A DNA stretch of 64,000 nt from Nannocystis pusilla. GTDB taxonomy: Bacteria > Myxococcota_A > Polyangia > Nannocystales > Nannocystaceae. Under the pieces are notes generated by a model that saw only the letters and a list, made by a program, of their open reading frames with translations, was not told the origin of the DNA and made no database searches. Each line of letters opens with the position of its first letter. Positions within the stretch are counted from its first letter, which is position 1. This document shows positions 2,188 to 2,257 of the stretch, in pieces. Location: assembly GCF_020073745.1 (NCBI RefSeq), contig NZ_JAIRAU010000002.1, forward strand, positions 81,694 to 145,693, read 5' to 3'. A program made the translations under genes and the position numbers.

Positions 2188-2257
2188 GACCTGCCTGATA
2201 CGACCTGGCTGATGGGACCTGCTTGATGGGACCTGCTTGATGGAACCTGGTCGATCA
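2188..2257. repeat. 5 tandem copies of a 14-bp direct repeat GACCTG(C/G)(C/T)TGAT(A/G)G filling the LolA-like/MMPL intergenic space and overlapping the MMPL start
   Basis: gacctgcctgatac gacctggctgatgg gacctgcttgatgg gacctgcttgatgg aacctggtcgatca read directly from the sequence. Confidence 0.85.

Follow-up and report, generated by a model that had tools for sequence, protein, structure and literature searches.

A 14-bp tandem array across the start codon of an MMPL-family exporter gene in Nannocystis: a probable young variable-number repeat with self-closing copies

Tandem duplication of a segment that carries a start codon normally sends out-of-frame ribosomes across the true start of the gene. 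The junction between a LolA-like gene and an MMPL-family exporter gene in a Nannocystis strain (Myxococcota) holds just such a structure, a run of 14-bp repeats that straddles the exporter start codon, and it raises the question of how the array arose, how the exporter tolerates it and whether the number of repeats matters for expression. We addressed this question in a 64-kb stretch of the genome (hereafter the window, to which all positions refer unless another locus is named). The account that we favor, with fair but far from complete confidence, is that the array is a young variable-number tandem repeat (VNTR) of the MMPL start region, whose copies close themselves, may hand translation on from one to the next, and would exert a small quantitative effect on the exporter.

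The junction belongs to a group of five co-oriented genes, which appears to be a pigment/lipid-type operon for biosynthesis and export and whose order (lyase/thioesterase/LolA-like/MMPL/DUF3261) is identical in relatives. The genes and the part of the spacer outside the repeats are as follows.

to 1035 (truncated by the window start), + strand, aromatic amino-acid lyase gene
1032-1436, + strand, 4HBT thioesterase gene, GTG start
1411-2166 (probable start), + strand, LolA-like gene, the upstream cistron (Pfam LolA_3, 5.1e-11)
2167-2187, + strand, non-repeat part of the LolA-like/MMPL spacer, GC-rich, 21 nt
2240-4627, + strand, MMPL-family exporter gene, 795 aa (Pfam MMPL)
4624-5268, + strand, DUF3261 lipoprotein gene, whose start ATG 4624 overlaps the MMPL stop (ATGA)

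The LolA-like reading frame opens at 1381 and closes with TGA at 2164-2166, and comparison with its homologue at locus L081 indicates that the gene probably starts at ATG 1411. Taken in order, the junctions of the cluster are GTGA (-4), a 26-nt overlap, +73 nt and ATGA (-4); the LolA-like/MMPL junction is therefore the sole open one of the four, the other three being overlaps. An 11-nt GC-rich inverted repeat, CGCGCCGCCGG / CCGGCGGCCCG, flanks the LolA-like stop (2145-2178, 91% complementary, 12-nt loop); no T-run follows it and it was not called as a terminator. At the far end of the cluster, the DUF3261 gene encodes a lipoprotein signal peptide, MNLRAWSIGHVVGAMLLGAC (4624-4700). The TRF rows of 14-bp period at 4632-4694 (GGGCATG repeated) fall within the coding region of this signal peptide and are unrelated in sequence to the array.

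TRF reports the array at 2187-2249 with a period of 14, 4.5 copies, 85% matches, no indels and a score of 84, and a repeat search over 2187-2260 returned start-to-start spacings of exactly 14, 14 and 14. Its units are listed below.

2188-2201, + strand, unit 1 (U1), GACCTGCCTGATAC; decayed, ATA replacing ATG, 11/14 to the array consensus
2202-2215, + strand, unit 2 (U2), GACCTGGCTGATGG; holds ATG 2212
2216-2229, + strand, unit 3 (U3), GACCTGCTTGATGG; holds ATG 2226, identical to unit 4
2230-2243, + strand, unit 4 (U4), GACCTGCTTGATGG; holds the authentic MMPL start ATG 2240
2244-2257, + strand, unit 5 (U5), AACCTGGTCGATCA; degenerate, 9/14 to the array consensus, within the MMPL coding sequence

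Unit 5 spans most of MMPL codons 2-6 (E P G R S) and shares bases with 2240-2253, the unit presumed to have served as template for the array. Among the 4.5 copies at 85% matches, U3 and U4 are the only two adjacent units that are identical. Read in the phase of the ATG codons, the array becomes GACGGACCTGCCTG, ATACGACCTGGCTG, ATGGGACCTGCTTG, ATGGGACCTGCTTG, ATGGAACCTGGTCG and ATCAGACAGGGCGA. The original prediction had described five tandem copies of one consensus that form the entire intergenic region and overlap the MMPL start codon. The overlap is confirmed, with ATG 2240 sitting in unit 4. The copy count stands for U2-U4, which match that consensus exactly, and is looser at the two ends, where U1 is one base off and U5 four. 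The repeats do not fill the spacer (2167-2239, 73 nt), which opens with 21 nt of non-repeat sequence, and the last 4 nt of U4 together with all of U5 are coding.

A search of the window with the degenerate pattern at ≤2 mismatches gave 8 matches against 1.58 expected, a count that none of 100 shuffles reached, and four of the 8 follow one another directly in phase. The array is genuine and lies far above chance. No second array of the 14-bp unit was found within the 64-kb window, where the motif outside the array stays at chance level. Short tandem repeats can suffer mis-assembly, which lends some initial plausibility to the view that the structure is an assembly or sequencing artefact, or else a chance repeat. 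Chance is excluded by the statistics just given, and against an artefact stands the independent assembly of N. radixulma NCELM, which has an orthologous four-unit array whose units correspond one-to-one; we find this explanation barely credible.

The role of the array depends on where the exporter begins. Reading upstream in the MMPL frame, the nearest stop is TGA 2210-2212, which leaves TTG 2237, ATG 2240 and GTG 2270 as in-frame candidates; ATG 2226 and ATG 2212 are both outside the frame. Across 432 MMPL homologues, the Nannocystis members are 794-795 aa long with an N-terminus of the form ME(P/Q/A)..., and the window protein shares 90-91% identity with those of N. punicea, N. pusilla, N. 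bainbridge and N. sp. RBIL2. In 18 Nannocystis-like homologues the protein begins with ME(P/Q/A)G..., MRPG... or MDQA... at the point that corresponds to ATG 2240, and in DNA alignments of the relatives the ATG at 2240 is invariant. Because the homologue N-termini align there and that ATG does not vary, the comparison places the exporter start at ATG 2240, in unit 4. Two other candidates were rejected. TTG 2237 is TCC in five species, and GTG 2270, a start that would have left the whole array outside the coding sequence, is replaced by GCG or GCA in relatives, whose genes start at the conserved ATG. ATG 2226, TTG 2237 and ATG 2240 had all been put forward as candidate starts: the third is the true start, the first is out of frame, and the second is in frame and is not the start. 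Gene-start annotation is corrected accordingly to ATG 2240, in place of TTG 2237 or GTG 2270, with ATG 2226 as a mini-ORF start.

Once the start is fixed, the sequence leaves little room for doubt that the upstream units were copied from the opening 14 nt of the MMPL coding sequence, ATGGAACCTGGTCG, which comprise the start codon and the 11 nt after it. They could have arisen by replication slippage or by a tandem duplication mediated by microhomology. The length and the ending of the unit have a direct consequence for reading frames. With a length of 14 nt (3n+2) and a terminal TG just ahead of the following ATG, every ATG-bearing copy closes itself as a mini-ORF, of which the window contains two.

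2212-2226, + strand, mini-ORF 1, ATG GGA CCT GCT TGA (MGPA, stop); the TGA overlaps ATG 2226 by one base
2226-2240, + strand, mini-ORF 2, ATG GGA CCT GCT TGA (MGPA, stop); the TGA overlaps the MMPL ATG 2240 by one base

The resulting TGATG overlaps, with -1 spacing, lie at 2224-2228 and 2238-2242, and in the real gene the codon that matches the mini-ORF TGA is CGA (Arg5). Junctions rebuilt by script with 0-6 copies of the U3/U4 unit left the MMPL frame unchanged in every case, gained one more closed MGPA mini-ORF per added unit, and gave a predicted unpaired probability around the true AUG of 0.43-0.51. Frameshift-type on/off phase variation is excluded, because any copy number leaves the exporter in frame, and with it falls the proposal, as far as on/off switching is concerned, that the repeats are a phase-variation device. 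A change in copy number had also been expected to alter both the start-codon context and the spacing. Each unit recreates the context and the frame, and it is the distance to the LolA-like stop that changes.

Comparison with relatives places this anatomy in an evolutionary series. The window DNA is 97% identical at the nucleotide level to N. radixulma NCELM (locus L001) over 5.3 kb, and alignment of the junctions gives 5 units in the window, 4 in N. radixulma and 2 in five other Nannocystis species. Copy number thus varies among close relatives, as the original prediction had proposed to check. The N. radixulma units are GACCTGTCTGACAA AACCTGGCTGATGG GACCTGCCTGATGG AACCTGGTCGAGCG; window unit 1 is orthologous to GACCTGTCTGACAA, GACCTGCCTGATGG appears twice in the window as the identical U3 and U4, and the other units pair one-to-one. 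Within the 5.3-kb alignment of the window and N. radixulma, the largest indel is exactly one 14-bp unit, and the only others are three gaps of 1-3 nt. Because units 3 and 4 are identical, the difference indicates a recent one-unit duplication in the window lineage, or otherwise the loss of a unit in N. radixulma. A further difference between the two genomes lies downstream, where N. radixulma has about 1.1 kb of extra DNA just 3' of the DUF3261 gene (L001 7040-8187 against window 5279-5368).

The five two-unit species (N. exedens, N. punicea, N. pusilla, N. sp. RBIL2 and N. bainbridge) carry CACCTGTTCCATGG AACCTGCCCGATCA. These two units match at only 8/14 positions, mainly in an ACCTG 5-mer, and for this reason it is uncertain whether the two-unit state is itself a duplication. 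It is plausible that the ACCTG 5-mers, 14 nt apart, served as a microhomology seed for slippage. More distant Nannocystis-like contigs (L081-L085) have a spacer of 17-57 nt at this junction without the repeat, and TRF, applied to this junction in 80 homologous loci that all came from species genomes, detected a 14-bp array in the N. radixulma locus only and none in the other 79. The progression from none in the outgroups to two units in most species, then four, then five, suggests that the array is a derived, expanding and lineage-specific VNTR. Since the expanded array occurs in two genomes only, selection on the TGA closures is inseparable from their descent from one founding unit.

N. radixulma also shows the closing of upstream reading frames in a somewhat different form. 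Both of its upstream ATGs (that of GGATGGACC... and that of unit 2) share one frame, whose TGA stop overlaps the true ATG; this upstream ORF has 13 codons and begins 17 nt past the LolA-like stop, and the window counterpart of its first codon is ACG.

Searches of metagenomes and protein collections returned no further instance of the array. Scanning metagenomes for a pair of adjoining units produced 53 loci, all of them unrelated single matches, and exact-protein look-ups with the window MMPL and DUF3261 proteins gave no match. The same look-up with the thioesterase returned a single 1.6-kb contig, which shares 462 nt with the window and stops short of the junction. This metagenome contig, ERZ28569464 (L139, 1-1616), encodes a thioesterase identical to that of the window, and its 462 nt match at 98.9% with unrelated sequence on both flanks, which indicates a chimeric assembly or a rearranged relative. 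Eight loci from the metagenome scan (L088, L096, L101, L111, L113, L129, L133 and L137) carry tandem GGGAGAC heptamers followed by ...GGGACCTTGGACCTGGGTGATGGGACCTGGAATCC...; this element comes from other high-GC organisms, is a chance result of the pattern scan, and is unrelated to the Nannocystis locus.

How ribosomes reach the exporter start bears on what the extra copies might do. No convincing Shine-Dalgarno sequence was found at the MMPL start in any species tested. Anti-SD pairing before this start, computed against an assumed conserved 16S 3' tail, ranged from -1.5 to -5.9 kcal/mol across these species, with -3.9 in the window; the window background mean is -3.9 kcal/mol and the DUF3261 start reaches -7.8. 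A Shine-Dalgarno sequence provided by the GGGA of the upstream copy was considered and rejected, as its -3.9 kcal/mol equals the window background mean. Taken at face value, the exporter start looks dependent on upstream translation. The -1 nt TGATG spacing is an enriched and functional coupling architecture, known from trpE-trpD, and short upstream ORFs are able to bring ribosomes to a downstream start (review, PMC12548453). The earlier suggestion of a translational-coupling device therefore finds an anatomy that fits it, each TGA lying over the next ATG in a TGATG motif, on the understanding that the coupling itself is a reading of this arrangement.

In the mechanism that we propose, initiation in an upstream copy would lead a ribosome through four codons to a stop placed exactly on the next start codon. 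The ribosome could then reinitiate at each following AUG, and the relay would end at the authentic AUG 2240, so that the duplications would at no point carry out-of-frame translation across the real start. Because the copies self-close and the exporter frame never shifts, growth from 2 units to 4 and then 5 was tolerated and the array has persisted. Expansion would also have lengthened the LolA-to-MMPL spacer, from 21-33 nt in the two-unit species to 73 nt in the window, and coupling in general weakens past about 30-40 nt (PMC12548453). The upstream AUGs may partly offset this longer spacer by relaying ribosomes to a start without a Shine-Dalgarno sequence, and mild tuning of MMPL translation is possible. 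The supply of ribosomes to the relay may be poor, since AUG 2212, the first of the upstream start codons, lacks a Shine-Dalgarno sequence and is 45 nt away from the LolA-like stop. Furthermore, the most distal copy has no ATG in either expanded genome, reading ATA in the window and ACA in N. radixulma, and this loss in both argues against strong selection for a long relay. We infer that the mini-ORFs are translated, that termination is followed by reinitiation, and that the net effect on exporter expression is small; the variable repeat is probably near-neutral and not an on/off switch.

A stronger claim would be that the array is an adaptive rheostat, in which slippage within populations changes the number of units and thereby grades MMPL translation through spacer length and relay mini-ORFs. 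The one-unit difference at 97% identity, in an alignment whose remaining indels over 5.3 kb are just 1-3 nt, is what such a device would leave behind, and the identical U3 and U4 provide the substrate that slippage needs. There is also a precedent at hmw1A, where more 7-bp repeats lower expression (PMC8262952). However, known contingency loci carry many perfect short units, and the array has just 2 perfect adjacent copies among at most 4.5, the whole being diverged (85% matches). The frame is constant, the predicted accessibility of the start site is nearly flat (0.43-0.51), and the array is missing from all other species with this operon. A soil myxobacterium and a biosynthetic/export operon are, in addition, an untypical setting for a contingency locus. 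We regard the rheostat as rather unlikely. A related possibility, which we likewise consider unlikely and if anything a shade more so, is a self-propagating start-codon VNTR, in which AUG-to-UGA units would pass ribosomes on and slippage would grade the amount of MMPL protein relative to the LolA-like protein with no frameshift. To our knowledge, copy-number control of translation through chained AUG-to-UGA mini-ORFs has no description in bacteria.

Control could instead act on transcription. The regular run of four to five direct repeats in a non-coding spacer is compatible with a direct-repeat operator, as proposed earlier, in which the GACCTG-N8 repeats would be sites for a regulator, or iteron-like sites, that control transcription into MMPL. 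The scan of 1300-2800 found no sigma-70-like promoter and no intrinsic-terminator-like site; the consensus used was of the E. coli type only, and an internal promoter is to that extent conceivable. Nevertheless, species with the same operon have no repeat, and the operon consequently works without the array. The motif is not above chance elsewhere in the 64-kb window, and duplication of the start of the coding sequence, ATG included, already accounts for the units. With a 14-bp period, moreover, consecutive sites do not face the same side of the DNA helix. The operator proposal does not hold up well against these observations, and we judge it very improbable.

The same period had also been linked to a palindromic family elsewhere in the window. 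The palindrome, AGGACATGTCCT, has 15 window matches at ≤2 mismatches against 1.07 expected, two of them perfect, at sites that include 35236-35247, 38499-38510 and 11059-11084 as well as 12 others, with one pair 14 bp apart (11059/11073). It is probably the operator family of a putative regulator. It differs from the array unit at 6/12 positions and is unrelated to it, which removes the supposed connection through a shared period. Other repeats in the window include a 101-bp tandem duplication at 10701-10890 (1.9 copies, 89% matches), which overlaps the 3' end of a VWA-domain ORF (7223-10732) and runs about 160 nt past its stop, and repeats of 102-105-bp period at 39832-40084, 54671-55067 and 55255-55441, which presumably encode repeat domains.

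A final alternative places the activity in the RNA, with the GGGA/GGA units forming a structure, or a platform for a CsrA-like protein or a small RNA, that would gate the MMPL start. A GGA or GGGA does stand beside the AUG in each unit, and in the minimum-free-energy fold unit 1 and the start of unit 2 (2190-2207) pair with 2246-2263 and enclose three AUGs. The fold, though, is no better than those of shuffled sequences (z = -0.74; 44 of 200 shuffles fold as well), and a search of Rfam gave no relevant match at E<=1. N. radixulma does not preserve these pairing partners, and the window contains no CsrA gene. An RNA element of this kind is very unlikely, and we return to the young, near-neutral VNTR as the account that we prefer.

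By analogy with described systems, the array comes closest to a MIRU or VNTR in miniature, one that arose locally. MIRU units are 46-101 bp long and their copy number differs between strains, a property exploited in VNTR use; the copy number of the array differs likewise. MIRUs are dispersed at many loci and are thought to be mobile, whereas the array is found at one locus and comes from the first 14 nt of the gene itself. MIRUs also use -4 nt (ATGA) coupling, in contrast to the -1 nt (TGATG) arrangement, four-codon ORFs and 14-bp unit of the array. Both sit where one cistron gives way to another of the same orientation, at the start of the second, which for the array means from the LolA-like stop at 2166 to ATG 2240. 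In MIRUs, as appears to be the case here, each repeat brings in a short reading frame of its own, the stop of which is coupled to the start that follows, with minimal impact on expression (PMC12548453).

Two further comparisons help to define the array. The 7-bp repeats of H. influenzae hmw1A/hmw2A are likewise tandem repeats at or upstream of a gene start, and closely related strains differ in how many they carry; at hmw1A repeat number grades expression (PMC8262952). The hmw arrays differ in having about 20 or more perfect copies, in lying in the promoter region and in acting on transcript level, and the strains engineered in that study carried 20-24 repeats (PMC8262952). The Nannocystis array, by comparison, has 4-5 diverged copies, no detected promoter and no frame effect. 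The UGAUG of trpE-trpD shows the same -1 overlap, and, as with upstream short ORFs that deliver ribosomes, a short reading frame stops on the start codon of a gene lacking a Shine-Dalgarno sequence (PMC12548453). In contrast to these cases, the ORFs of the array are tandem, chained, four-codon copies of the gene's own start, and they are putatively translated.

Read conservatively, the locus is a clean natural case of a tolerated tandem duplication spanning a start codon. A unit of 3n+2 nucleotides that ends in TG automatically makes a stop overlapping the next AUG, a design principle that MIRUs are also thought to use, and the version described here arose locally from the gene's own sequence. 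For the organisms themselves, the array is a ready VNTR marker with which to tell apart strains of the N. radixulma clade. If it does tune expression, its chained mini-ORFs would offer a small module, open to engineering, with which to grade translation.
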